Below are positions 3,080 through 55,821 of a stretch of 64,000 nt of DNA, one piece after another. The notes below the pieces were generated by a model that did no database searches, was not told the DNA's origin, and saw only the letters and a program-made list of their open reading frames with translations. Location: IMG/VR virus record IMGVR_UViG_3300020193_000015, one strand, 5' to 3'. The DNA comes from a virus. The position numbers were made by a program, and so were the translations under genes. Each line of letters starts with the position of its first letter. Position 1 is the first letter of the stretch.

Positions 3080-3845
3080 ACCATTGATGATGTTGTCCCT
3101 GCCGAATACTGGAACTGATTGGTTGGTTAAATGTTTATTAAAGACTAATAAGTATAATTATTCTAGGGAATTTTTCAACCCAATGGTGAACGAAAAGTAT
3201 TGTGATATTTTATCGAAATGTTTTGGGTGTGAATATGCTTCTCTTGCGCATTTGATTGCTAAAGAGCCTATTTTGTCTTTGGCAACAAGTGTTTTAAATG
3301 ATAGTTGGAATAAAGAAACATTTGATTTTACTAAAGAGACATTTTCTGCTTTTAAAATTGATTTCTTTTTTAAAAAATTTACTTGTTTTGTTTTATTCAG
3401 AAAAATAGAACAAAGTATGCCGTCGAATGTCTTTGAAAGGATATATCCATTAAGAAGCTGGTATGATGCTATGTTTTTCTCTTTAATAGCCAATAAAGCA
3501 TCTCTTGAGCCAGATATAAGAAAAATGGTTGAAGTTACTGAAAAATATGGTTTGATAGAGAGACAAATAGCTGCTTTTGTGATATATTACAGCAAGTTAC
3601 TTAAAGAAGCTAAAGATCGTCAACTTATTGTTTTGGAATATGATAAATTGCTTTCCTTTTCAGCGGTAAAATTAGTTGATTATTTGACGATTCCATTTAT
3701 TTGCAATCCTACATTAACTGCATCTGAAGTTTTGGAAACTAGAAAACCACGAATGGATAATTTTTGCTCATTAGGGAAAAAAGCGGTTAAATTTAAAGAA
3801 CTAATCACATCTTTTGCACCAGAAGAATACAAGGCTTTATGTTAA
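3072..3845 (+). CDS. hypothetical protein, possibly sulfotransferase-like
   Basis: N-terminal LPNTGTDWL resembles the PAPS-binding PKSGTTW motif; weak. Confidence 0.3.
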   Translation: MNKPLMMLSLPNTGTDWLVKCLLKTNKYNYSREFFNPMVNEKYCDILSKCFGCEYASLAHLIAKEPILSLATSVLNDSWNKETFDFTKETFSAFKIDFFFKKFTCFVLFRKIEQSMPSNVFERIYPLRSWYDAMFFSLIANKASLEPDIRKMVEVTEKYGLIERQIAAFVIYYSKLLKEAKDRQLIVLEYDKLLSFSAVKLVDYLTIPFICNPTLTASEVLETRKPRMDNFCSLGKKAVKFKELITSFAPEEYKALC

Positions 3846-4363
3846 AGGTTATGCCTAGATATCAAACTGACAGACCTGATATAAGCGGGTGGTTCCTTGA
3901 TTATGAAGGACGTTTTTATCATGATTTAGTCTCTAAAATTGAAAATGGTATTGTTGTCGAAATTGGTAATTGGCATGGGCTTTCATTATCATATGTTGTG
4001 GAAGTTTGTGCCCAGCAAAACAACAAAATTTATGCAGTAGACAAATTTCATTGCACTGAATTTCTTAAAAATTTTAAAAATTGGCCTCAAAATACAGTAG
4101 AATTAATTACAATGTCTTCGGCGGAAGCTTCACTTAAGTTTGATGACGCTTCTATAGACCTAGTTTTCATAGACGCAAATCACGAATATAATTCAGTGCA
4201 TGCTGATATAAATGCTTGGATGCCTAAAATAAAAAAAGAAGGAATTATTTCAGGCCATGATTATTGTTTAGCTTGGCCTGGCGTTATAAAGGTTGTTGAT
4301 TCTTTGCTTCCTAATAGAAAAATTCAAGATAGAATTTGGTATTGTAAGCTGGAGGGAATATGA
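3839..4363 (+). CDS. class I SAM-dependent O-methyltransferase (TylF/Methyltransf_24-like)
   Basis: VVEIGNWHG motif I; VFIDANHEY; GHDY. Confidence 0.6.
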   Translation: MLKVMPRYQTDRPDISGWFLDYEGRFYHDLVSKIENGIVVEIGNWHGLSLSYVVEVCAQQNNKIYAVDKFHCTEFLKNFKNWPQNTVELITMSSAEASLKFDDASIDLVFIDANHEYNSVHADINAWMPKIKKEGIISGHDYCLAWPGVIKVVDSLLPNRKIQDRIWYCKLEGI

Positions 4364-8709: not shown

Positions 8710-8746
8710 GTGTCGTTTTATTCTTACGGGAATGGAAGGATGCACA
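8710..8746 (+). promoter_or_regulatory. conserved hairpin motif GTGYCGTTYTATTCTTACGGGAATRGAAGGATGCACA (copy A of 7)
   Basis: shared with 56207, 56569, 56970, 57801, 57882 and 59670; the stem has compensatory changes; ends in AAGGATGCAC. Confidence 0.55.
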
Positions 8747-8764
8747 GCAACAGAGAGCAAACTA

Positions 8765-9850
8765 ATGCGAAGTCACTTTTGGGATGTAGTGGTAAGGGGA
8801 TTTTTACCCATTCGTGATCCTGTATTAAAGGGAGATTTATTTGAAAAAATACCCCTTACAGGATCAAGGAATGAAATATTTAATTATTTAAATCAAAATA
8901 AAGTTGATTTAACAGCATTTGTAAACAATGAAGAAGATTGTGAACGGCTCTTTAGAATGTATTCCTATGCTGCTAGTGCCTTTATTCATTCCCAAAGTGA
9001 ACCGCCTACAAACGTTCTACCAAAAGAAATAGCCGTACCTTTAGTTAAGTTCTCTCAGATACTAGACAGAAAGCCAATTCTATCATATGGTAGCTATTGT
9101 TTAAATAATTGGCAAAGAATAGATGTTACCAAACCTGTAGAACTAGGTAATATTCGTTTATTGACGCATTTTTGCCCTATTCCATATAATCGGGATGAAG
9201 CTTGGTTTATTCTGGTGCATGTGGATATAGAAAATTCAGCAGCTTTGGGTATTTTTGCTTGTCATTCGATGCTTTTGCAAGACCCCTTAACACCTGAATT
9301 TGCTTTCTTTGTGCTTAATCAGATAAAAACCAGTCTGATTAACATGAATAAAGCCTTGAATAGAATGCCAGAAGAATGTAGCCCAGAGCATTATTTTTTA
9401 TTCGTTAGACCTTATATATTCAGCTTTGAAAATGTTGTTTATGAAGATTGTTTTCATGGTAAACCGCAAACTTTTAGGGGTGAAACAGGGGCACAAAGTT
9501 CTATAATACCTGCTTTTCTTGCAGCATTGGAGATAAAGCATAAAGATTCAATGTTGACTCATCATTTGCAGGAAATGCGGGATTATATGCCTAAAGACCA
9601 TCGCATTTTCCTGAATAATTTAGAAAATAGTTCTGTGCATCTAAGGGAAGTGGCTAAGAAAGACAGCAAGTTAAAGCCTTTATATAATGAATGTTTAATG
9701 CAACTTATTGATTTTAGAGAAAAACATTTTGAATATGCTATTAACTATATTGCTAATAAAGTAGAGAATCCTAAAGGTACAGGAGGAACACCTTATGTGC
9801 CTTGGCTTAAGCAGCTGAAAGAAGAGACTAAGCAGCAAATTTTGGAGTAA
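8765..9850 (+). CDS. hypothetical protein
   Basis: the ORF track begins at 8732 inside the hairpin motif; ATG 8765 is more plausible. Confidence 0.45.
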   Translation: MRSHFWDVVVRGFLPIRDPVLKGDLFEKIPLTGSRNEIFNYLNQNKVDLTAFVNNEEDCERLFRMYSYAASAFIHSQSEPPTNVLPKEIAVPLVKFSQILDRKPILSYGSYCLNNWQRIDVTKPVELGNIRLLTHFCPIPYNRDEAWFILVHVDIENSAALGIFACHSMLLQDPLTPEFAFFVLNQIKTSLINMNKALNRMPEECSPEHYFLFVRPYIFSFENVVYEDCFHGKPQTFRGETGAQSSIIPAFLAALEIKHKDSMLTHHLQEMRDYMPKDHRIFLNNLENSSVHLREVAKKDSKLKPLYNECLMQLIDFREKHFEYAINYIANKVENPKGTGGTPYVPWLKQLKEETKQQILE

Positions 9851-9852
9851 AC

Positions 9853-9987
9853 ATGAAAGATTATTTAAGGACAATCAAGCTTGGCATCGGAGAAGGTGAA
9901 CCCGGCAAGCAAGCATGTTGGATGAGTGCCCTTTCTGCGCATTTGGGCGGGGAATGGACAGATAGTTTGGAATGTGTTGATCCTTAA
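9853..9987 (+). CDS. 44-aa N-terminal module MKDYLRTIKLG..CWMSALSAHLGGEWTD..CVDP, paralogous to the N-termini at 38949 and 39938; ends in TAA
   Basis: direct sequence comparison; the gene junction GAGTAAACATGAAAGATTAT is also duplicated at 38945. Confidence 0.45.
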   Translation: MKDYLRTIKLGIGEGEPGKQACWMSALSAHLGGEWTDSLECVDP

Positions 9988-10601
9988 ACTTTGAGGCAAA
10001 TGGTCCTGGGTGGAGAGGAGACAATTATTATTTAACAGAAAAAGAAAATAATTGTTCGGTTTGTGGAGCTACAGAAGAATTAACTCGGCATCATGTTGTT
10101 CCATACAGTTATAGAAGATATTTCCCAGAAGAAGTAAAATCACATAATCATCATGATATTGTGCTTTTATGTGTTCCTTGCCATACCGAATATGAACGTG
10201 AGGCACGTAAATTTAAAAAGCAAATTATAATTAAGTATGGCATTTCGGTTAATGGTACTGGATATCAATATGACCATGAAATAGCAATAGTTAAAAGGTT
10301 TTCTGGTACTTTATTGGAACATGCCGCTTTAATCCCACAAGCTAGAAAAGAGGAAATGTACCAAGTTATAAAGGATTATTGCAAAAAAGATGTGACGACA
10401 GAAGATATGAAAAAGCTGGTTGAGACTTTAAACCCACATACATACTCAGAAGATCATTTAAAACATGCAGATGCAATTGCAAAACTGGTTGATATTCAGG
10501 AATTTGCTAGAGAATGGAGACAGCATTTTATTGATTCTATGCAGCCTAAATTCTTACCGCTTCATTGGGATGTGAATCGTTCTGTTTATAAGGAAAATTA
10601 G
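9981..10601 (+). CDS. HNH endonuclease (CSVCG..RHHVVP..HNHHD..CVPCH); no canonical in-frame start
   Basis: the frame opens at 9981 immediately after a TGA; the first in-frame canonical start is GTG at 10161, downstream of the zinc knuckle; a -1 shift at the stop of the 9853 ORF would fuse the two. Confidence 0.55.
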   Translation, partial: SLNFEANGPGWRGDNYYLTEKENNCSVCGATEELTRHHVVPYSYRRYFPEEVKSHNHHDIVLLCVPCHTEYEREARKFKKQIIIKYGISVNGTGYQYDHEIAIVKRFSGTLLEHAALIPQARKEEMYQVIKDYCKKDVTTEDMKKLVETLNPHTYSEDHLKHADAIAKLVDIQEFAREWRQHFIDSMQPKFLPLHWDVNRSVYKEN

Positions 10602-16415: not shown

Positions 16416-17588
16416 ATGCTTGTAGCAGAACGACATTATATACAAGAAACACTTGAAATTGTCCGACTATGTACATTAAGCAAAGAACTTTACAATAAAT
16501 GCAATTTCTTGATGAGGCAAGCATGGTTTATAAATGAAAAATTACCTAATATAAATTTGCTTGTTCGAGAGACAAAGCCATTAGACTGTTACAAAAACCT
16601 TCACAACACCAAAACAGCAGCACAAACAATACGTAAATGTCTTGTAGATTGGGCAAACTTCCTCAAAACCCTGAAAGCATACAAGAAAGACCCAACAAAA
16701 TTCAAAACTAGACCTAAACCGCCTTATTATAAAAATAAACTCACACAAATTATATTCTTTAATGAAACTATCAAGAAAAGACCATTGAAACAAGATGTAA
16801 TTACCCCAACGAACAATCTATTTTCAATTAAAAGTGACATTAAAGAATTTAAGCAAGTAATGATTACTCCTAAAACATTTGGTTTTATAGTAGACATTCA
16901 ATATGAAAAAGAAGTCAAGAAAGTAAAAGTAAGCAAGAATAGGTTTGCCTGTATAGATGTTGGTGTAAATAATTTAGCTACGATAACTTCAAACCAACTG
17001 GAGCATCCCATATTGGTTAATGGTCGCATACTAAAAAGCATCAATAGATTCTATAATAAAAAACCTAATAAGAATAATAGTAGGAAACGTTATTTCCGTA
17101 TTGAGAATTATTTCCATCATGCTTCTAAATTTATAATTGATTTATGTATTAAACATAAAATTGGCAAAATCATTATCGGTAAGAATGATGGTTGGAAGCA
17201 ATTTTCTAAAATACGAAAAGTACAAAACCAAAATTTTCAATATATTCCTTTTTATAAATTTTTAGATAAGATTAAGTATAAAGCAACATTAGCGGGCATT
17301 GAAGTTATATTTACTGAAGAATCATATACAAGTAAAGCAAGTTTCCTTGACCATGATTCAATACCAACTTATAAAAAAGGCAATAAACCTCCTACTTTTT
17401 CTGGTAAAAGAGATAAAGGAATGTATAGAACATTTAGACCTATTCATGCTGACGTGAATGGAAGTTTAAACATAGGATGTAAAGTATTCGGGGATAAAGT
17501 CTACAAGGCTTTCCCTGATAGGAGCATTGCCGCAATGCCAGTACGAATTAATCCATTGAAGATTTTTGCATATAACAGCAAAAATTAG
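16416..17588 (+). CDS. tnpB: TnpB-like (IS200/IS605 OrfB / Cas12-ancestor) RuvC-fold protein, 390 aa
   Basis: RuvC-I FACIDVGVNNLATIT; RuvC-III HADVNGSLNIGCKVFG; TnpB-like C-terminus; no CxxC..CxxC zinc finger; RuvC-II glutamate not evident (IIIGKND). Confidence 0.65.
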   Translation: MLVAERHYIQETLEIVRLCTLSKELYNKCNFLMRQAWFINEKLPNINLLVRETKPLDCYKNLHNTKTAAQTIRKCLVDWANFLKTLKAYKKDPTKFKTRPKPPYYKNKLTQIIFFNETIKKRPLKQDVITPTNNLFSIKSDIKEFKQVMITPKTFGFIVDIQYEKEVKKVKVSKNRFACIDVGVNNLATITSNQLEHPILVNGRILKSINRFYNKKPNKNNSRKRYFRIENYFHHASKFIIDLCIKHKIGKIIIGKNDGWKQFSKIRKVQNQNFQYIPFYKFLDKIKYKATLAGIEVIFTEESYTSKASFLDHDSIPTYKKGNKPPTFSGKRDKGMYRTFRPIHADVNGSLNIGCKVFGDKVYKAFPDRSIAAMPVRINPLKIFAYNSKN

Positions 17589-30847: not shown

Positions 30848-33800
30848 ATGTCGCAATTTAAGACAGTTGAGAATTTTAAGGATATTTTAATGTTAAAAGA
30901 AAAAACTACTTTGCGATCCTATCAGCTGCTTCTATTAGATAATCATGATTTAGTAGAAAAGACGATAGATGTTTATACAAAAGGAGCTTCTGCTTGGTTG
31001 GACTTTTGGCTTACTGTTTTGGGCGGTATAGAATTTGAGATGATTCCATTATCTCCTCTTAGCAGTTATTGTATTACTAAAAAATTAAAGAGGAAATCCC
31101 AAGAAGATAAAGAAATATTTATTCCTATTAGCGAAGAAGCTTTATTGTTTGGCTGTTGGTTTTCTTTAGAAACGAATAGCAATTCGCCATTCATTATTTC
31201 TGTTCAAGATGTTTGGAACAAGTTCAAATCTTATCTGCCGAATAATGTGAAAATAAGCTACAATTGGGAAAGAACTATCAAAGCACAAATTAATTCCTTT
31301 GTGTCTGAGAATACTTGTTGGGTAGATAGAAGAAAAGCATTTCAAGACCTATCATTTAAAATTAATGTTGCTGATCTTGTTTGTAAAAAAGATTTTTGGC
31401 TTAATAAAGATGTGGATAGCAAATTGTATATGAGAAGTGCCTTGGGGCAATGGTGGAATGATGGAACAAAATCAGATTGGGTTAATCTTAAAATTAAATG
31501 TGAACAGTCTATAAAATTTATCGAACAAGAATCAGATATCAGAAATGCAAAAACAAAAATTCTACAATCTCTTGGATTGCCAGATATAGCAGAAGCTAAA
31601 GAAATTGGCAAAGCTTATGGCAAAAAAGGAAAGCCTTCCAGAGTGTTTATTAAATTGGAAAAATTAACAGAAGATACTACCAAAGACCAATTGGTTAAGG
31701 AATTTCAAGAAGAAATTGTAAACGCAGAAGAACATGTTGCTTTTAAGCGTTGTCCCTGGCATGCGAAAATTAGAGAAAACATTGAAAAAGCAATAGGTGT
31801 AAGTTATTTTAATGAAAAAGGTAATAGTAGTCAAAATAATTTTGGAGAAATGGGCAATCTTGCTCTTGAAAAAATTAAAAGTTGGAAATCTAATTTTTTT
31901 AATGTCTTAGGAGAAAGATATCATAACTGTAAATCTGATTTCCATGATTCAGAGGTAAAAGAATGGTTTGAAGAATACAAAAAAACAAACAAACAACTTA
32001 GAAATAGCAGCCTTTCAGGACTTGAAAAAGTATTTGATTTACTAGATAACAAGTCTTTTGAAGATGCTATTAAAGAAGCCCAAAAATCCTACAACATTCT
32101 TGGAAGAAGATTTGGAGACGCTAACTTTTTCAACTTTTTAGGCAATAAAATTCAGTCCAGAAAGGACAAAGATTGGTTGAAATTAATACGAGAATATGAT
32201 AATTGGGATAATGTAAATTACAAATTTATAAATCATAAAAGTCCAAGACTTAAGCATTTTGGGGATGATCACTTAGCCACTCCTAGATTTGGGGAGTCAA
32301 GACCAACAGGCAATATCAAAAGCACAACTGGAAATAGTCACTCAATTACATTGAATGTTTTCGATGGCAAATCATTCAAACTGACTAAAATTAATTCTGC
32401 TTGCAAAAGATTGTCTAATGAAATTAAAGATAATCAATCAATTAGACAGACTAAGTTATCTGGAAAAATCTTTGAAAACTATCGAATTCTTCCTAAGAGT
32501 TTAGTTAAAAAGGGTGGACTTAAACTTTGTAAACAAAATGATAAATGGTATGCCCATCTAACAGTCAATTTGCCAGTATTTGAAAAAGCTTCATGGCAAA
32601 AATTGATGAAAACCGGCACCATAATAATGAGTATAGACCCTGGTATTAGAAGTTCTATATCATATACTATATTTGAAATATTTGAATGTGATCGAGATAC
32701 AGATTATTTTATTGAAAATGGCATTACTCATGTGAAAATACATTCATGGGAAGATCATAGTGGTACTAAGTTTAAAGTGCCTCATAATAATTTGTGGGTT
32801 AAATTGTTGGAATGGGGACATATTCGTGATCTACAACCTATTGGCGAAAATGGTTATCGTCAGTGCAGATTAGATGGTGGAACAAACACCAATTTAGACT
32901 CAGAAGAAATAGAATTTTGGAAATATCTTTTAATAACTGGTGTTGAGCAAAAAGACATGCCTGATCCTTTGCCAAAAAGGTCTGAATATTCTAGAATTAT
33001 TGCAAATTTAATTAACAAGTGGTATACAAACAAATCAAAAGAAATTACAGATAAGGTTAAACAACTAAATATTAATGATCCTGTAGAGTTTTCAAAAACT
33101 TTACAACATGTAAGAAAAGAAAGCGATTTATCATCAGAATTATTGATAAAGGCGTCCCAAATATTATTTGTAAATAATTCAGATAAAATTGGGAGAGGCG
33201 GGTTATCCTATGCTAGAATTAAGATGCTCCAAACACTTTCTTCTGCTTGTAATAAATTCTTAAAAGTTAAAGAAAATAATGCAGAAATTATTGAATTTCA
33301 GAATTTTCTTAGAAAGAAAATTAATGCCATAAGAACGGAACGAGTAAGAATTACTGTAAACAAAGTTTTGCATGAAGCTGTCAATAACAAAGTAAATCTA
33401 ATTCTATATGAAAATACCCAACTAAAATCTTCTTCCAGTTCCCCCAGAGGTCTTAATAGAAGTATAACATCCTGGTGCCCGTCAAAAGTAATCGAAGAAT
33501 TGAAAAAACAAATAGATTTGTTGCCAATTTCTATAATGGGAGTAAACTCTGCTTATACGTCTCATAACTGTTTTGTAACTTGCAAGAAAAAATGTCGTTA
33601 TGATAAAGTTCATTTAGATGATCTTAATATTGAGCCTTGGAAAGAAAGAATAACCGATATTTTTACAAAAAAACAATTAAGCTTAACTGATTGTTTGTTG
33701 AAAAAAGGTTGGGAAAATTTCCTGAAAGAAAATGACTTGATGAGCTACAAACAAATACCTGAATTTGTTAAAAACAAAAAAGCTTTTTGTTTAGTTCCCT

Positions 33801-33910
33801 CCAGGACAGGAAAATTGTTTGTTACAGAAATTGGAGAATTGAATGCTGATATCGCCGCTGCTGCTACAATAGGAATGAAAGGTCTTGCAATAATCCTATC
33901 CAAAGCTTAA
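30848..33910 (+). CDS. cas12: type V CRISPR effector, Cas12-like (1020 aa; size and repeat suggest the Cas12i-like compact class)
   Basis: split RuvC motifs in TnpB/Cas12 order: RuvC-I MSIDPGIRSS (D about 32636), RuvC-II LILYENTQL (E about 33410), Cys-containing stretch SHNCFVTCKKKC, RuvC-III ELNADIAAAATIGMKGL (D about 33849); a 26-repeat array follows directly. Confidence 0.75.
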   Translation: MSQFKTVENFKDILMLKEKTTLRSYQLLLLDNHDLVEKTIDVYTKGASAWLDFWLTVLGGIEFEMIPLSPLSSYCITKKLKRKSQEDKEIFIPISEEALLFGCWFSLETNSNSPFIISVQDVWNKFKSYLPNNVKISYNWERTIKAQINSFVSENTCWVDRRKAFQDLSFKINVADLVCKKDFWLNKDVDSKLYMRSALGQWWNDGTKSDWVNLKIKCEQSIKFIEQESDIRNAKTKILQSLGLPDIAEAKEIGKAYGKKGKPSRVFIKLEKLTEDTTKDQLVKEFQEEIVNAEEHVAFKRCPWHAKIRENIEKAIGVSYFNEKGNSSQNNFGEMGNLALEKIKSWKSNFFNVLGERYHNCKSDFHDSEVKEWFEEYKKTNKQLRNSSLSGLEKVFDLLDNKSFEDAIKEAQKSYNILGRRFGDANFFNFLGNKIQSRKDKDWLKLIREYDNWDNVNYKFINHKSPRLKHFGDDHLATPRFGESRPTGNIKSTTGNSHSITLNVFDGKSFKLTKINSACKRLSNEIKDNQSIRQTKLSGKIFENYRILPKSLVKKGGLKLCKQNDKWYAHLTVNLPVFEKASWQKLMKTGTIIMSIDPGIRSSISYTIFEIFECDRDTDYFIENGITHVKIHSWEDHSGTKFKVPHNNLWVKLLEWGHIRDLQPIGENGYRQCRLDGGTNTNLDSEEIEFWKYLLITGVEQKDMPDPLPKRSEYSRIIANLINKWYTNKSKEITDKVKQLNINDPVEFSKTLQHVRKESDLSSELLIKASQILFVNNSDKIGRGGLSYARIKMLQTLSSACNKFLKVKENNAEIIEFQNFLRKKINAIRTERVRITVNKVLHEAVNNKVNLILYENTQLKSSSSSPRGLNRSITSWCPSKVIEELKKQIDLLPISIMGVNSAYTSHNCFVTCKKKCRYDKVHLDDLNIEPWKERITDIFTKKQLSLTDCLLKKGWENFLKENDLMSYKQIPEFVKNKKAFCLVPSRTGKLFVTEIGELNADIAAAATIGMKGLAIILSKA

Positions 33911-33959
33911 AATGGCTCTGTTCGTTGATCTTTGACATCTTATTTTTAAGTTTATTTTA

Positions 33960-33996
33960 AACAGAAAGCAAACTGTTATCAGTTTTTCTTTCTGTT
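33960..33996 (+). terminator. hairpin AACAGAAAGCAAACTG..CAGTTTTTCTTTCTGTT downstream of cas12
   Basis: about 16-bp imperfect stem, T-rich. Confidence 0.55.
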
Positions 33997-33997
33997 C

Positions 33998-34035
33998 AGT
34001 CTCTCGCCCTTATTTAAAAATAAGGGCGAGAGACT
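33998..34035 (+). terminator. perfect 15-bp stem AGTCTCTCGCCCTTA/TAAGGGCGAGAGACT with loop TTTAAAAA
   Basis: read directly. Confidence 0.6.
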
Positions 34036-34259
34036 ATGTGGTGAAAAACGTTGGAAAAGAAAATTTTTCTTAAGTCCTGATGAATTAAGCTTTTGCGATA
34101 AAGTTATCCTGTGCTGCCTATCGCTCGTTTTAAGTCTTTATTTGAAAAAGGTTTATGGCATCAAACCAATAAAATTCGGATATGCAGTTGTTCTAAAGTA
34201 ATTGCCTCTCGCATACTTGTTTGTAAGTTGTTTTATTAAAAGGCTTTATGCAAATGAGC

Positions 34260-36080
34260 GTTGCAATAGATTAAAACAATGTGCTGTTATTGGCACTTCG
34301 GCGTCATCGTCGGCATGGCCGCCCTGGTCCTGGTTGCAATAGATTAAAACAATGTGCTGTTATTGGCACACCAATGGCCAGTTTCAGAAAAGCACTTTTT
34401 CAATGTTGCAATAGATTAAAACAATGTGCTGTTATTGGCACAAATAAAACCAGCCAGTAACCGCTATATCCGCAAAAGTTGCAATAGATTAAAACAATGT
34501 GCTGTTATTGGCACTATTTGATTGTACATTGCATTACAATCGCCGTTTTTGTTGCAATAGATTAAAACAATGTGCTGTTATTGGCACCCAAAGGCCAGTC
34601 TCCGCCTTTGGCGCTCAAGAGCGTTGCAATAGATTAAAACAATGTGCTGTTATTGGCACCGATACAATGAAAGTAATCACGTGCACGATGGCAAGGTTGC
34701 AATAGATTAAAACAATGTGCTGTTATTGGCACGTCAAATATGGAGTAGGATGAAGGGCGAATTTTGGAGTTGCAATAGATTAAAACAATGTGCTGTTATT
34801 GGCACTGGAGGCTAAGGACTAACAAGAAGAAACTAGGAATGGTTGCAATAGATTAAAACAATGTGCTGTTATTGGCACGGAGTCCAGATACCATAGTTAA
34901 TTCGTTGCAATAGATTAAAACAATGTGCTGTTATTGGCACACTAATCAGCCAATCTTCTTAGGTGTTGATCTTTCGTTGCAATAGATTAAAACAATGTGC
35001 TGTTATTGGCACCGAACCGCCCTTGCCGCCGCCGTACACCTTAATGGTGTTGCAATAGATTAAAACAATGTGCTGTTATTGGCACTATCCGCAAAAAAAG
35101 AATGTGTCAATGCAAGGGTATTGTTGCAATAGATTAAAACAATGTGCTGTTATTGGCACCCAGCTTGGCAATCTGTCCTTCAATGTGCGTTCTTTGTTGC
35201 AATAGATTAAAACAATGTGCTGTTATTGGCACTATAGTGTATGCACCGACTAATATATAATAGTAGCGTTGCAATAGATTAAAACAATGTGCTGTTATTG
35301 GCACTTTTTGGTCCTCGTCGTGGCCGTACACGTGATCGAGGTTGCAATAGATTAAAACAATGTGCTGTTATTGGCACTCCAGTTATTGCTTGTTACTGAG
35401 AGAAGGGCTGGGCAGCGTTGCAATAGATTAAAACAATGTGCTGTTATTGGCACTATAGCAATCGATTATCTCCGCATCGTCCAGTAGATGTTGCAATAGA
35501 TTAAAACAATGTGCTGTTATTGGCACCTGCGCAGCGTAGAAGGTTGTTTCGTCGATGACCTGGTTGCAATAGATTAAAACAATGTGCTGTTATTGGCACA
35601 AACGTGACAAAGAGGTTGCAATAGATTAAAACAATGTGCTGTTATTGGCACATGAATTCGCCAGTGGCGACATGTCGGTCCGTGTCTGGTTGCAATAGAT
35701 TAAAACAATGTGCTGTTATTGGCACTTGATGCTCTGCCCCAGACTTTCGTGGAAATCCGTGTTGCAATAGATTAAAACAATGTGCTGTTATTGGCACGGC
35801 ATTTGCTTAGCCACCTCCGCACTCTTACACTTCTGTTGCAATAGATTAAAACAATGTGCTGTTATTGGCACAATGTTCCAGACTTGCTACTACCTAATAT
35901 GTTTCCGTTGCAATAGATTAAAACAATGTGCTGTTATTGGCACGTGCGAAGGTTGCCGGACTGCTTATGTTGCAATAGATTAAAACAATGTGCTGTTATT
36001 GGCACTGGAACGCACTTTTTCTTTTTTGCGATGCAGCAAGGAAGTTGCAATAGATTAAAACAATGTGCTGTTATTAGCAC
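34260..36080 (+). CRISPR. CRISPR array of 26 repeats and 25 spacers; repeat GTTGCAATAGATTAAAACAATGTGCTGTTATTGGCAC (37 bp); terminal repeat is degenerate (..TTATTAGCAC)
   Basis: repeats enumerated at 34260, 34333, 34405 and so on to 36044; spacer lengths are mostly 35-37 nt, with outliers of 15, 25, 25, 38 and 39 nt; the repeat 3' end forms GTGC-TGTTATTG-GCAC; the degenerate repeat at the 3' end implies a leader at the 5' (cas12-proximal) side. Confidence 0.95.
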
Positions 36081-37450: not shown

Positions 37451-37638
37451 TAACAAGTGATGATCCTCTTACTGCAAAATTGATAAAGCTTTTGAACCGG
37501 GCACATGATATAATATGGCTCAATGCTTTAGAACCTATTTATAAAGAAGAGGTTTTGTCACAAGCAGAAATTGAAGCTTTTCTGATGGAAGTTGAGGAAG
37601 TAATATATAAGCCAAACCCAAAAGCCCCTGTAGTTTAA
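37429..37638 (+). CDS. hypothetical protein
   Basis: ORF track. Confidence 0.3.
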   Translation: MVREKLMITSDDPLTAKLIKLLNRAHDIIWLNALEPIYKEEVLSQAEIEAFLMEVEEVIYKPNPKAPVV

Positions 37639-37697
37639 TTGTGCAAAACGTGCTACTTTAGATAGCTAAGATGTGGGTTCGAATCCTGCCAGGGGCG
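37624..37697 (+). tRNA. tRNA with anticodon UUA (candidate ochre/amber suppressor tRNA)
   Basis: manual cloverleaf: acceptor GCCCCTG/CAGGGGC, D-stem GTTT/AAAC, anticodon stem TGCTA/TAGCT with loop CTTTAGA, variable loop AAGAT, T-arm GTGGG-TTCGAAT-CCTGC, discriminator G; unusual G at position 37. Confidence 0.55.
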
Positions 37698-37726
37698 TTA
37701 GTTTCATTGCATATTTACTATGATAT

Positions 37727-38300
37727 GTGATGAAGAAAACAAAACCAACACAACTTAATGAACAAATATTACAAAAAATAATTCCAAATTGTATTTCTTA
37801 CAGCGAAGTGTTTAGGCAATTAGGTATGGTTCCTGCTGGTGCCAATTATAGAACCTTGCATAAGTATGTTAAATTATGGAATATTGATGTATCTCACATT
37901 GAGGCACGTACTTGGCATAAACATATAAGTAATGGGAGGGGCAGACCTTTAGAAGAAATTTTGGTTAAAGGCAGATTCGAGACGGGACACATTCTAAAAA
38001 AAAGACTTATAGCAGCAGGAATCAAAAAACATGCTTGCGAAGGATGTGGTTTAACTGAATGGCGTGGCAAGTCAATTCCTTTAGAAGTTCACCATAAAGA
38101 CGGGGATAGGAATAACAACTTGCTTGTAAGTCTTGTGATGAAAAAAACCGAAAAACAAAAATTTCTTGGCCATCCTGTGAAGAACTTCAATCAATGATAA
38201 AATCTTCTTCATTTTTAGCTGTTGGAAGGCAATTAGGAGTTTCAGATAGGGCAGTTCATAAGCGGTTAAAGAATCATTGTGGAATCAAAAATGAGTAAAA
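37727..38300 (+). CDS. HNH homing-type endonuclease with an apparent -1 frameshift near 38125 (1-nt indel)
   Basis: CEGCG..LEVHHKDGDRNNNLL in frame 1 (stop at 38197), then CKSCDEKNRK..SSFLAVGRQLGVSDRAVHKRLKNHCGIKNE in the -1 frame to 38300; together these rebuild a complete HNH plus C-terminal HTH tail. Confidence 0.6.
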
Positions 38301-38947
38301 TTAAAGTTTTAACTATAGAAGAAGCTATGTGGAATATAGGCCAATATAAACCTAGCAAAGTCAGACTTCCAAAGAAACTAGTTGAAATTGGAAAACTGAA
38401 AATCCATGCAGACACACAATATTACGATGCCTTTGCTAATTATTATAGCAGGCTAAAAACTCAATTGCCACATGATAAGTTCTGGCAAATAATTGAATTT
38501 CTAAGAAAGCTAATCGCAAATCGTGGTTTCACCTATGACAAATTAAAAACTTCCATAGATGAATTGTTCCGGCTAACTGCAACTGGAGAAAGCGAACACC
38601 CTGAAGGTGGTTTTGATGGTCCACATGTTGCATATAATTTCAAGGACTTATTGCAGTTCTGCTTTACATATGAAGGAATTTCCGATAAAATAGACCAGAA
38701 GCTTGATGACTTTTCTCTTGGCAGTGATGATTCTAGAGGCGATTTGATGGATTCACTGCCCTTGGCTGGTGTAAAAGTGTACGAAAATATACTAAATGGC
38801 ACAGTCAAGAATGAGCAAGATTTAGAAAAAGAATTGAAGTCATTGGCTAAAAAATGGTATGAGTTTATCCGAAATGGCGAAAACTATGTGTGGATGACAT
38901 TAAAGGAAGAAGCGGCAAGTAGAGCCTTAAATCTAATGATGGAGTAA
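38291..38947 (+). CDS. hypothetical protein
   Basis: ORF track (38279). Confidence 0.4.
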   Translation: MSKIKVLTIEEAMWNIGQYKPSKVRLPKKLVEIGKLKIHADTQYYDAFANYYSRLKTQLPHDKFWQIIEFLRKLIANRGFTYDKLKTSIDELFRLTATGESEHPEGGFDGPHVAYNFKDLLQFCFTYEGISDKIDQKLDDFSLGSDDSRGDLMDSLPLAGVKVYENILNGTVKNEQDLEKELKSLAKKWYEFIRNGENYVWMTLKEEAASRALNLMME

Positions 38948-38948
38948 C

Positions 38949-39641
38949 ATGAAAGATTATCTAAGAACAATTAACTTGGGGTAGGGAGTCGGTGAATCTG
39001 GCAAGCAAGCATGTTGGATGAGCGCTCTTTCTGCTCATTTGGGTGGGGAATGGACCGATACATTAGATTGCGTTGATCCTATCATTAATAGCCTTTGCAT
39101 AATTATTAATGATCTTTATTATATGGACAATAAGGGCAGAACCAATGACATTATGAAATTTGGTTTGTTTGCTCCATTGGGAACTAAAGGCACTTGGAAA
39201 GATACTGAGAAAAGACTATTTAAACTTGCGGATATTGCTATAAGAAAATGGGCAGCAACCGTGAGTTTTCATACAGGATTTATACAAGATGAAAAATTCC
39301 TAAGAAATTTGGATGAAATTGTAGATTTGCCTAGTCTTCGTAAAGCTAGAAATGATATTGAAATTGCAGCTTGTTATTTAATGAGTGAATTGGACATAAT
39401 AATTTATCATATAAAAGGCATTTTGATAATCCACGAAACTTGCAAGAGAGAAATGATAGCTAATTTATATAAGTTTACTGGAATTTTGATAGATCATATG
39501 GGTAGAAACGTTCTCGTAAAAGATCATTTATATTCTGCACTAAGAGAACTAATTGAAATGGGTCCACATGCACCAGAAGAACCTGAATATCCTGCTTGTG
39601 GTATTCCAAAGTTTCAAGAACTAGTAGGTATTAAAACATAA
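38949..39641 (+). CDS. paralog B1 (N-terminal MKDYLRTINLG.. module); in-frame TAG at codon 12 (38982..38984)
   Basis: ATG 1 nt after the upstream stop; the frame is continuous with ORF 39018..39641 except for the single TAG; the aligned position is Ile or Phe in the paralogs. Confidence 0.5.
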
Positions 39642-39653
39642 ACTAAAAGAATT

Positions 39654-39682
39654 AGTGGATTAAAACAATGTGCTGCTGGCAC
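39654..39682 (+). repeat. orphan degenerate CRISPR repeat GATTAAAACAATGTGCTG-CTGGCAC (3-nt deletion in the hairpin loop)
   Basis: 18 of 18 nt plus TGGCAC match the array repeat; lies between the 38949 gene stop and the 39694 gene start. Confidence 0.55.
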
Positions 39683-39693
39683 ATAGGTATTAA

Positions 39694-39937: not shown

Positions 39938-40489
39938 ATGAATGATTATCTTAAAACAATCAAGCTAGGATTTGGCAAAGGCAAAAGGGGAGAACAAGGA
40001 TGTTGGATGAGGGTGTTCCACATTGCAGATACTGTTATTAGAGAGTGGACGCCAACTGTGTTAAGAAATTATTGGCACGGTTTACGGATCGGTTGTCCAA
40101 TGCACCTTTTATATCAAAAAATTGCTGATAAATTAGAAGAAATGCCTAAAATTTCAAAAGAAACATCTAAACTTTATCGTGTTTTAGATACTTTAAATGA
40201 AATGGAAATTAAAGAATTAAAATCTGCAAAAACTATTATTATGGCTGCATGTTTTCTTTCCATTAAACATAGTCGTATAATGTGTGATGGCATTGCCGAT
40301 TCCGTTGTTGGCACATTTCCTTGGCCTTGGTTAGAATTGAATGCCGACCGTGATCATAGAAAATACCTAAAGACCAAAGTTTACCCATTGTTAAGAGAAC
40401 TAATCGAAATGGGACCACATGCACCAAAAGAATCAGAATATCCTGCTTGTGGTGTACAAAAGTTCAAGGAAGCGGTGGGAATAGTTTAA
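39938..40489 (+). CDS. paralog B2 (MNDYLKTIKLGFGKG..CWM.. module; C-terminal LRELIEMGPHAP..YPACG shared with B1)
   Basis: sequence comparison; the ORF track starts at 39875. Confidence 0.5.
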   Translation: MNDYLKTIKLGFGKGKRGEQGCWMRVFHIADTVIREWTPTVLRNYWHGLRIGCPMHLLYQKIADKLEEMPKISKETSKLYRVLDTLNEMEIKELKSAKTIIMAACFLSIKHSRIMCDGIADSVVGTFPWPWLELNADRDHRKYLKTKVYPLLRELIEMGPHAPKESEYPACGVQKFKEAVGIV

Positions 40490-49569: not shown

Positions 49570-49640
49570 GGCCCCATAGCTTAAGAGGAAAGCAGGGTGC
49601 TTATAACGCCAAGACGGTAGTGCGACTCTACCTGGGGCTA
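49570..49640 (+). tRNA. tRNA-like gene, anticodon UAU by manual fold (atypical T-loop TGCGACT, G1-U72)
   Basis: acceptor GGCCCCA/TGGGGCT, D-stem GCTT/AAGC, anticodon stem GGTG/CGCC with loop CTTATAA, T-stem GGTAG/CTACC; a TATATAAT promoter-like box lies just upstream. Confidence 0.4.
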
Positions 49641-54775: not shown

Positions 54776-54982
54776 TTGTTAACTGCTTCCAAAAAGGCGC
54801 TAAAGGATTGCCCATTTTGTGGCCGAAGTCCTATTACTATTTGCACAGTGAACGATAAAACGGGAATATACGGATGTCAAGTAACTTGCGATGTATTTTG
54901 TGGTATTAGTTTATTTTTTAGTGCTTATGATAGAGAAACAGCAAGAAAAGGTGCAATTGAAAGGTGGACTAAGAGAATATGA
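54776..54982 (+). CDS. hypothetical Cys-rich protein
   Basis: ORF track. Confidence 0.35.
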   Translation: MLTASKKALKDCPFCGRSPITICTVNDKTGIYGCQVTCDVFCGISLFFSAYDRETARKGAIERWTKRI

Positions 54983-55821
54983 ACGTTGATGATTTAGGTT
55001 CACGCATGAAACTTTTTGAAGGACAGACTGAAGGAAATTTAATTCCTATGCTTCCTGCAATGTGCCGAATTGATGGAAGATCGTTTTCTAGTTTCACAAT
55101 GGGACTTCGCAGACCATATGATGAACGTCTTTCTAAGTTAATGGTTGATACTACTAAATTTTTGGTCAAAGAGACTTGTGCAACTTGTGGTTATACTCAG
55201 TCGGATGAAATTACTTTATCGTGGTATCACCCTACAATGCAAACCCAGATGTTTTTTGATGGTAGAATCCAAAAAATCAATTCTGTGGTCGCCAGCATGA
55301 CCTCTGTTTACTTTATTTCGCAGATTTTAACTAATGATGCATTGCCAATTGAATATGCTGCTAAATTGCCTCATTTTGATTGTAGGGTTTGGAATGTACC
55401 CAAATTAGAAGAAGCAGTTAATTGTTTCATGTGGAGAGAGTGGGATTGTACCAAAAACTCAGTTTCAATGGCTGCGCAAAATTACTACAAGCACAAAGAA
55501 TTAATGGGCAAGCACAGCGGAGAACTCCAAGAATTGCTTTTTCAAAAAGGGATCAATTGGAATGATTATAACAGGCATTTCAAGAGGGGGACTTTTGTTC
55601 AAAGACGAAAAGTAATTAAAAAGTTTTCGGCTATGGATATTGAAGCTTTGCCCCCAATGCATGAAGCTAGACTTAATCCAAATTTAATGGTAGAAAGAAG
55701 TGAAATTCAAGAACTTGATATGCCGCCTTTTATTAAAGTGACCAACAAGGCAGATGTAATTTTTAACGGTGCTGAACCTTTGACAGAATTTAATTGTACC
55801 AAGGAAAGCCATGAAAACTAA
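54979..55821 (+). CDS. Thg1-like protein (tRNA-His guanylyltransferase / 3'-5' polymerase family)
   Basis: [34 protein letters not shown] and [20 protein letters not shown] match conserved Thg1/TLP blocks. Confidence 0.7.
55789..55803 (+). promoter_or_regulatory. conserved 15-mer TTTAATTGTACCAAG (copy 10)
   Basis: inside the Thg1-like C-terminus (FNCTK); 7 nt upstream of ATG 55811. Confidence 0.6.

Follow-up and report, generated by a model that had tools for sequence, protein, structure and literature searches.

The 64,000-nt stretch of DNA analyzed here (IMG/VR virus record IMGVR_UViG_3300020193_000015; below, the window) contains a transfer RNA (tRNA) gene with the stop anticodon UUA, located upstream of a member of a multi-copy gene family that is interrupted by a single in-frame TAG (the TAG gene; Table 1). 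The explanation that we lean toward, and hold to be somewhat likelier right than wrong, is that this tRNA is a dispensable and at best weak suppressor of the ochre type, which derives from a tRNA-Arg and stands beside a nonsense mutation that has become fixed in one member of a redundant family. The data showed that the body of the tRNA is of the arginine type, that the TAG is fixed in the phage population, in which structure-breaking alleles of the tRNA circulate, and that the standard genetic code is used. The sequence covered was ~73 kb in all, comprising the window and 9 kb past its left end, of a genome of probably several hundred kb.

The stop-anticodon tRNA and its arginine-type body

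ARAGORN found a single tRNA in the window, labeled it tRNA-Stop and gave its anticodon as tta, and Rfam family RF00005 (tRNA) scored the same interval at 57.4 bits (gathering score 29, E=9e-10). Hence, the fold and the anticodon proposed in an earlier note on this DNA, made from the sequence alone, were accepted by the tRNA predictor. The UUA anticodon at positions 37658-37660 is complementary to UAA; it is contained in the loop CTTTAGA, which begins with C37656, and is followed by a G at 37661, which is position 37 of the tRNA. This loop and the T-loop TTCGAAT, both named in the earlier note, could be read directly from the sequence and from the Rfam alignment. The parts of a tRNA cloverleaf are present, which are a 7-bp acceptor stem (GCCCCUG/CAGGGGC, with the discriminator G73), a D arm with the stem GUUU/AAAC and the D-loop AAUUGUGCA, a 5-bp anticodon stem (UGCUA/UAGCU), a 7-nt loop in which position 33 is U and position 37 is a purine, and a TPsiC-type T arm (GUGGG-UUCGAAU-CCUGC). 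The cloverleaf had been described as clean, which holds for the overall fold and its score, but not for a U.U mismatch at 27-43, two G.U pairs in the T stem, and an interruption of the two D-loop guanosines (G18 and G19, which pair with Psi55 and C56). The latter are split by a U in AAUUGUGCA, while the Arg-type relatives have the D-loop AATGGAYA. Thermodynamic minimum-free-energy folding alone gave no cloverleaf (z=-1.6), and such a failure is common among A+U-rich tRNAs.

A second tRNA, at 49570..49640 (+), was scored by Rfam at 53.6 bits and was not called by ARAGORN. Its loop CUUAUAA contains the anticodon UAU (Ile, AUA), which could derive from CAU via a C>T transition, and its T-loop UGCGACU is odd in having a G in place of U55. 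The AUA codon is frequent in the window (20 per 1000).

The ancestry of the stop-anticodon tRNA was analyzed by scanning one genome per species from 185,579 bacterial and archaeal species with a pattern in which U8-A9-G10, the acceptor stem, G73 and the T-loop were fixed, and the rest was free. There were at least 120 matches in total, and 118 of the 120 listed were identified by ARAGORN as tRNA-Arg, with the anticodons UCU (86), CCU (20), CCG (10) and UCG (2). When G73 was not required in a scan of viral contigs, the same stem also turned up in Leu, Thr and Lys tRNAs, where the discriminator is A73 or C73; therefore, among the matches listed, the combination of this stem with G73 is specific to Arg. 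By this comparison the acceptor stem, the discriminator and the T arm of the window tRNA are of the tRNA-Arg type. The D arm has diverged: 108 of the 120 listed matches have the D stem GCTC/GAGC versus GTTT/AAAC here, which amounts to two compensated C-G>T-A changes, and the D-loop AATGGAYA of the Arg tRNAs is replaced by AATTGTGCA, with a split GG and without the context of A20. The anticodon loops of the listed Arg tRNAs include CTTCTAA (80), CTCCGGA (9) and CTTCGGA (1). The window loop CTTTAGA can be reached from CTTCGGA by two transitions (C35>T and G36>A), or from CTCCGGA by three, with G37 and A38 unchanged in either case. The G37, which the earlier note had singled out as atypical and deserving scrutiny, is thus explained by inheritance from the loop of an Arg(UCG/CCG)-type ancestor, of which it is a relic, and the concern about it was justified.

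These differences bear on what the tRNA could carry and decode. The main identity elements for arginyl-tRNA synthetase (ArgRS), known from work in E. coli, T. thermophilus and yeast, are A20 and C35. Both determinants are gone from the window tRNA, where position 35 is U and the D-loop has lost the GGA(Y)A sequence by which A20 is located; therefore, charging would need a synthetase other than ArgRS. Anticodons in which positions 34 and 35 are both U tend to be recognized by LysRS, GlnRS or GluRS, and Arg-derived amber suppressors engineered in E. coli inserted mainly Lys. By analogy with the E. coli suppressor work, the amino acid carried by this tRNA, if any, would most likely be Lys or Gln. 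Efficient bacterial decoders of codons starting with U have an A37, usually hypermodified, on the 3′ side of A36, in the place taken here by the G at 37661. The TrmD-type methylation that yields m1G37 (1-methylguanosine) requires the sequence G36G37, so a G37 beside A36 is no substrate of TrmD, and it is also without the modification of the i6A (N6-isopentenyladenosine) type that aids suppressors. Therefore, weak decoding is predicted. The ochre-type suppressor tRNAs of classical genetics read UAG as well.

In IMG/VR, searches with exact or degenerate patterns of the anticodon arm and T arm returned no orthologue. A pattern of this type gave 39 matches in 241 million metagenome records, of which 38 were chance matches and none was an orthologue. 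The sole other real tRNA with this loop in those records (L035) is a GC-rich Sup-tta with an unrelated body, and it was not accepted as an orthologue. A blastn comparison with 50,697 phage records returned partial T-arm matches only, and a match to a "tRNA-OTHER" of Gordonia was rejected as a low-score undetermined tRNA.

Fixation of the TAG and population variation of the tRNA

Near-identical contigs are present across several public metagenome assemblies. Exact-protein look-ups with the 218-aa protein encoded next to the TAG gene led to JGI, ENA and Logan contigs that include the beginning of the TAG gene, seven independent assemblies in all. The 67-nt context that includes the TAG was identical in all seven (L182-L187 and L189), and two of them, which reach approximately codons 135-145, had no further change. 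Therefore, the TAG is fixed in the phage population and is not an assembly error; an assembly artefact was ruled out by this identity.

The tRNA behaved differently in a comparison of 18 assemblies, which were aligned to the window over 67,480 nt. Among the variant calls, 11 in total, two were located within the 74-nt tRNA, and both of them damage its structure. The G37673T substitution in assembly L182 breaks the first pair of the T stem and lowers the Rfam score from 57.4 to 51.6 bits. The other variant, a natural 9-nt deletion in assembly L183 (Table 1), removes the 3′ strand of the D-stem along with the 3′ portion of its loop, so that no D-loop is left and the score falls from 57.4 to 37.0 bits. 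This deletion is the consensus of its sample, and the same contig keeps the TAG unchanged. Three further calls, representing two distinct single-nucleotide polymorphisms (C37836A and A37871C), are in the adjacent HNH gene, and the remaining ones consist of one variant elsewhere that is common to two assemblies and four calls at a divergent contig end. Full-length coverage of the tRNA makes up ~0.5% of the aligned bases, and the chance that at least two of 11 events would fall there is ~0.001-0.002. Since the variants cluster in the tRNA and in the HNH gene, which is itself disrupted, the tRNA-HNH module looks like a patch of relaxed constraint. The circulation of structure-breaking alleles suggests that the phage does not depend on the tRNA.

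The TAG gene and its family

Translation confirmed the claim of a single TAG in an otherwise continuous frame: the TAG gene is one frame of 230 codons with the TAG at codon 12, and the next in-frame ATG is at 39018 (Met24), which is the start chosen by the gene callers of the assembly projects named above. Eight homologues were found in a set of 5.8 billion proteins, all of them unannotated metagenome proteins on short contigs, and no relatives of the family were found in IMG/VR. All eight homologues start with MDYLRTIKLGxGxGxPGKQACWM. The TAG column corresponds to a variable x of this motif, occupied by F, L, Y, H or I, and it is flanked by the invariant residues Y4, L5, T7, I8, L10, G11, G13, G15, Q20, C22, W23 and M24. 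A single substitution in TAT or TAC (Tyr) or in TTG (Leu) is sufficient to yield TAG. The residues previously reported at this column in the window paralogs, Ile or Phe, were also found in the alignment, with Ile in the copy at 9853 and Phe in the copy at 39938.

None of the three family copies in the window is intact, since one is a stub, one is internally deleted and one carries the TAG (Table 1). The copy at 9853 had been treated as a paralogous gene, but it is only a 44-codon N-terminal stub that ends with TAA and is followed by an HNH open reading frame (ORF). In the first 43 comparable codons of the TAG gene and the stub, the proportion of nonsynonymous differences (pN) was 0.069 and that of synonymous differences (pS) was 0.522, a ratio of ~0.13; therefore, the surroundings of the TAG have long evolved as coding sequence. 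The TAG gene starts right after the upstream stop codon, as had been noticed, with its ATG 1 nt past the TAA of the 218-aa gene. The junction TGGAGTAA(A)CATGAAAGATTAT is common to the TAG gene and the 9853 stub, so that the reported identity of the two junctions is correct for the sequence save for a 1-nt indel. The HNH ORF directly after the stub has no ATG, GTG or TTG in its first 60 codons, even though the HNH motif is found there, and the coding potential of this leader is high (score 36.9). The stub and the HNH ORF together (9853..10601) may represent an insertion that has been disrupted, a fusion dependent on frameshifting, or a pseudogene.

The related contigs L003 and L004 contain three tandem copies of the family each. 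In the homologues encoded there (P0001-P0006) long, highly variable, low-complexity repeats rich in Ala, Tyr and Val take the place of the middle of the protein, with a conserved block on the N-terminal and on the C-terminal side. Such repeats are missing from the window copies. The center of the protein therefore seems to be hypervariable in this tandemly amplified family. The family is also found beside tRNA genes elsewhere, at 4140..6930 of contig L001, where there are eight tRNAs (three Ser, three Leu, Tyr and Phe), and in L004, where there is a tRNA-Leu(UAA) at 3430..3523. Therefore, the association is recurrent, without suppressor anticodons on those contigs.

Stop codon usage and genome context

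In a greedy set of 116 ORFs of the window the ends were TAA in 59, TGA in 36 and TAG in 21 cases, hence TAG and TAA together end ~70% of the ORFs (18% for TAG and ~51% for TAA). Reassigning any one stop codon to sense lengthened the ORFs of the + strand no more than the noise seen on the − strand. A same-frame-neighbor screen found no TAG- or TAA-interrupted ORF in the window besides the TAG gene among ~115 ORFs, and a screen for a short N-terminal piece followed by a stop and a long ORF also returned only the TAG gene for either codon. Read-through was considered at the TAG of a polymerase-like gene (14966), at the TAA of the rIIB-like gene (25165) and at the TAA of the clamp loader gene (40487), and was rejected in each case, as the downstream ORF has its own ATG within its first few codons. 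In a test of tandem stops and extension lengths, the extensions and the next in-frame stops were alike after TAA, TAG and TGA, with no adaptation to an ochre suppressor. The base following the codon-12 TAG is G, which follows only two of the 21 real TAG stops. No release factor or aminoacyl-tRNA synthetase gene was found among 45 ORFs scanned, and the 9 kb past the left end of the window are dense, normally coding and filled with intact gene calls.

Published surveys of phage recoding contain only TAG>Gln and TGA>Trp (bioRxiv 10.1101/2021.08.26.457843), and no jumbo phage that recodes TAA has been reported (PMC13037316). The marks of recoded phages, which are a rare recoded stop, many in-frame stops with a coding density that rises under the alternative code, and a CUA or UCA suppressor, often together with a release factor or an aminoacyl-tRNA synthetase, were not seen in the ~73 kb covered. 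As far as this DNA shows, the standard code is used. Hence, the idea of stop-codon recoding raised in the earlier note is unsupported in the window and the 9 kb beyond it, where all three stops are regular terminators.

The GC content of the window is 36% and nearly all of its genes are on the + strand. They include rIIA, an rIIB-like gene, a clamp loader, endonuclease VII, several HNH endonucleases and TnpB. The nearest deposited record is LR756511.1 (uncultured phage, 595 kb), with a clamp loader protein identity of 57%; therefore, the window is a segment of a huge phage, and it belongs to a huge lake phage using the ordinary genetic code. A megablast search of the locus against phages gave no match, and a promoter and terminator scan of the locus gave background levels only.

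Explanations for the tRNA and the neighboring TAG

A sequence of events that would account for these data may be proposed. The tRNA would descend from a tRNA-Arg in which the anticodon UCG or CCG became UUA through C>T and G>A transitions in an AT-rich phage, with G37 kept, and it would be located in an accessory, homing-endonuclease-associated patch beside the frameshifted HNH gene. Having lost A20 and C35, it would have to be charged by another synthetase, with Lys or Gln expected, and with its G37, its interrupted G18G19 and its U.U pair it would be at most a weak reader of UAA, and of UAG by wobble. The TAG would be a nonsense mutation that reached fixation in a single copy of a redundant, fast-turnover family. 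The product of the TAG gene would be either a protein truncated from Met24, without the conserved N-terminus, or a small amount of protein made via read-through, to which the undamaged tRNA allele may add without being required. The ancestry of the tRNA, with G37 as a relic of Arg, and the damaging alleles point to a dispensable element.

Two of the possibilities listed in the earlier note should be seen in this light. A nonsense mutation in a redundant and fast-turnover family fits best, but that it is recent, as the earlier note worded this option, is not demonstrable for a TAG fixed in every sample. Suppressor-dependent expression is possible, given that the ochre type also reads UAG, but it finds no support past proximity. 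G37, the loss of A20 and C35 and the split G18G19 make the tRNA look weak, and it is polymorphic for damaged alleles, including that of L183.

Several observations weigh against a weak and dispensable suppressor beside a fixed nonsense mutation. Most bases involved in tertiary interactions are kept in the tRNA (U8, A14, U33, U54-A58 and G53-C61) and its cloverleaf has been preserved by compensatory changes; therefore, it has been under long selection as a tRNA, and the undamaged allele may well be active. The sample of full-length tRNA alleles is small, consisting of four, and the variants could reflect the tuning of a toxic suppressor by selection instead of neutral decay. Apart from the TAG, the TAG gene has an intact ORF of 218 codons with conserved C-terminal motifs. 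Finally, it is a notable coincidence that a stop-anticodon tRNA is located 1.25 kb upstream, and on the same strand, of the sole nonsense-interrupted conserved gene among ~115 ORFs.

These points would be accommodated if the tRNA and the TAG gene formed a functional suppressor pair or a case of incipient recoding, in which a tRNA charged with Gln or Lys would provide a useful low level of UAG and UAA read-through. In variants of this explanation, the read-through allowed the TAG, being at a position that tolerates change, to become fixed by drift, or else rescue of the TAG gene is what has kept the tRNA. We consider this rather unlikely. The UUA anticodon in a well-scoring cloverleaf with compensated D-stem changes, the position of the TAG at the only hypervariable column of a conserved motif, which accepts many residues, the intactness of the rest of the gene and the fixation of the TAG in seven assemblies all agree with it, as do the placement of the tRNA upstream on the same strand and the G after this TAG, which is rare at real TAG stops. 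It would also represent an opening stage of code change in the model of Borges et al., in which a suppressor tRNA is acquired before in-frame stops accumulate (bioRxiv 10.1101/2021.08.26.457843). On the other hand, this is a single case in ~115 ORFs, damaging tRNA alleles exist, one of them linked to the TAG, and TAA and TAG end ~70% of the ORFs without tandem-stop adaptation. Moreover, poor activity is to be expected from G37 and from the loss of identity elements, and the tRNA is not conserved in any relative in the IMG/VR and metagenome searches. A bolder form, which we regard as improbable, is that the pair represents the first step of a stop-codon reassignment, in which the former Arg tRNA with the UUA anticodon was captured by another synthetase, its weak read-through of UAA and UAG let the TAG fix, and loss alleles segregate as the suppressor is costly. 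If true, this would be the first natural example with an ochre-type (UUA) suppressor at the first step of reassignment.

It is quite improbable, in our estimate, that the tRNA is not aminoacylated at all and is a dead relic or a non-translational RNA, such as the pseudogene of an HNH-associated cassette, a decoy for an anticodon nuclease, or a site of processing or recombination. The loss of A20 and C35, the interrupted GG, the G37 after A36 and the U.U pair would be expected in this case, as would the variant hotspot common to the tRNA and the decayed HNH gene and the lack of orthologues in the IMG/VR and metagenome pattern searches; the second tRNA of the window is also aberrant. The 57-bit score and the compensated stems, however, exceed what is expected for an old pseudogene, and there is no positive evidence for a decoy role. 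Late-gene recoding outside the window, in which the early genes would be standard and TAG and/or TAA would be reassigned in structural and lysis genes with the tRNA as a part of the switch, is very unlikely: the recoded crAss-like and Agate phages do keep a standard replication module and recode only late genes (bioRxiv 10.1101/2021.08.26.457843), the genes seen in the window, such as rIIA/rIIB, the clamp loader and endonuclease VII, are of the early type with no structural genes among them, and the 595-kb size of the closest deposited relative places most of the genome outside this view, but known recoded phages use CUA or UCA and deplete the recoded terminator, no phage with TAA recoding is known (PMC13037316), no release factor or synthetase gene is nearby, and in no sample should the consensus of an essential recoding tRNA lack part of its D arm.

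Preferring a dispensable, at best weak suppressor, we note that a stop-anticodon tRNA beside a nonsense codon is insufficient to infer recoding. The locus is also a worked example of how independent metagenome assemblies separate a fixed feature, here the TAG, from decaying ones, here the tRNA and the HNH gene. If the tRNA were active, it would be a rare natural intermediate toward an altered code and a source of an orthogonal-looking tRNA that reads UAA and UAG.

Neighboring genes and the Cas12i system

The features of the window are collected in Table 1. The HNH gene between the tRNA and the 218-aa gene appears frameshifted on the basis of its PHROG matches: its N-terminal part (37730..38197) matches phrog_10822 with E=7e-25 over profile positions 6-134 of 245 only, and its C-terminal helix-turn-helix part (38116..38298), in another frame, matches positions 125-170 of 183 of phrog_15471 with E=0.0013.

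Table 1. Coordinates of the features discussed, in window positions
Feature	Position	Strand	Remarks
tRNA gene, anticodon UUA	37624..37697	+	ARAGORN; Rfam RF00005
Natural 9-nt deletion in the tRNA gene	37641..37649	+	Assembly L183; GTGCAAAAC, between GTGC direct repeats
HNH homing-endonuclease gene, apparently frameshifted	37730..38298	+	PHROG profiles
218-aa gene, function not assigned	38291..38947	+	Between HNH gene and TAG gene; exact product on 10 public contigs
Multi-copy family member with in-frame TAG (TAG gene)	38949..39641	+	TAG at 38982-38984
Solitary CRISPR-repeat-like element	39650..39685	+	18-nt core GATTAAAACAATGTGCTG identical to the array repeat, then CTGGCAC completing the 3′ hairpin
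Third family copy	39938..40489	+	29% identical; without the conserved block at ~residues 25-88 (alignment)
N-terminal family stub, 44 codons, ends TAA	9853..9987	+	82% nt identical to the TAG gene; 44-aa gene call in independent assembly L191
HNH endonuclease ORF directly after the stub, other frame	9981..10601	+	Pfam HNH 2e-05; several HNH PHROGs
Predicted Cas12i ORF, 1020 aa	30848..33910		Family profile versus Cas12i2
CRISPR leader	33911..34259		Between the Cas12i ORF and the array
CRISPR array, 26 repeats of 37 nt	34260..36080		Repeat GTTGCAATAGATTAAAACAATGTGCTGTTATTGGCAC; degenerate in the last copy only

A type V-I CRISPR (clustered regularly interspaced short palindromic repeats) system of the Cas12i kind is located at 30848..36080, 1.5 kb upstream of the tRNA. 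The profile of the 1020-aa ORF family matched Cas12i2 (6ltp_A; PDB 6ltp/6ltr) over its full length (profile positions 5-982, E=1.7e-62), and the ORF contains the RuvC motifs SIDPG, YEN and NADIAAA. By sequence, this ORF is a Cas12i protein, as judged from the full-length similarity, the RuvC triad and the adjacent array. It has no Pfam or PHROG match, and its family has only 39 cluster representatives among 1.84 billion. The array, an ORF-poor stretch, contains 25 spacers with a GC content of 31-69%, and no spacer targets were found in the window or the fetched loci. The public assemblies break at the array. The solitary repeat-like element, which falls within the 233-nt gap that separates the TAG gene from the following family copy, could be a mini-array, an orphan crRNA (CRISPR RNA) or a regulatory repeat.

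Further genes of the window include one at 54979..55821 encoding a Thg1-like protein of the tRNA-His guanylyltransferase/3′-5′ polymerase family (Pfam Thg1, 3e-28), a type involved in tRNA 5′-end repair or editing, and an indoleamine 2,3-dioxygenase-like gene at 8732..9850 (Pfam IDO, 5e-58), which is unusual in a phage and lies directly upstream of the 9853 stub. Genes of the TnpB/IS605 OrfB type, with a Cas12f1-like TNB domain, were found at 16416..17588 of the window and at 1299..2525 of contig L192, the latter copy being located ~8 kb upstream of the window start.

Comparison with known systems

The classical ochre suppressors of E. coli (supB, supC and supG/L) and the psu suppressors of T4 have the anticodon UUA, arise by anticodon mutation and rescue phage nonsense mutants. 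As TAA is the main terminator, they tend to be weak. The sources on the E. coli ochre and T4 psu suppressors are Eggertsson and Soll (1988) and McClain (1970), as cited in PMC8386662. The window tRNA shares with them the anticodon UUA and the expected reading of UAA, and of UAG by wobble. It differs in its origin, since a single anticodon change in a Gln, Lys or Tyr tRNA is enough to produce a classical suppressor, which retains A37 and its cognate identity elements, while the window tRNA has an Arg body with at least two anticodon changes, has kept G37 and has lost the Arg determinants.

A close likeness by description is to phiKp24, a jumbo Klebsiella phage with the standard code, which has a tRNA-Sup-TTA of "arginine identity" (PMC8386662). 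Both are cases of a TTA stop-anticodon tRNA with an Arg-type body in a large phage with an otherwise standard code. In contrast to the window, no adjacent nonsense gene is described for phiKp24, the host and the environment differ, and blastn gave no similarity between the two. Recoded phages such as Lak, crAss-like, Agate and Jade resemble the window in having a phage-encoded stop-reading tRNA, a low-GC genome and an in-frame stop in a phage gene (bioRxiv 10.1101/2021.08.26.457843; PMC9523058). However, their tRNAs have the anticodons CUA (TAG>Gln) or UCA (TGA>Trp), their late genes contain tens to hundreds of in-frame stops, and the recoded terminator is depleted, none of which is seen in the window. 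The Zeta crAss-like phages have suppressor tRNAs that are apparently inactive or unused (PMC12386605), and they are like the window in that a suppressor tRNA is present while the use of in-frame stops is nil or almost nil; they differ in having TAG or TGA suppressors, in belonging to another phage order, and in that no population evidence of decay has been reported for them. Hence, stop-anticodon tRNAs in standard-code phages are already known from phiKp24 and the Zeta crAss-like phages. What is new here is the Arg ancestry that explains G37, the fixed TAG in the neighboring gene, and the population evidence against a strong constraint on the tRNA.

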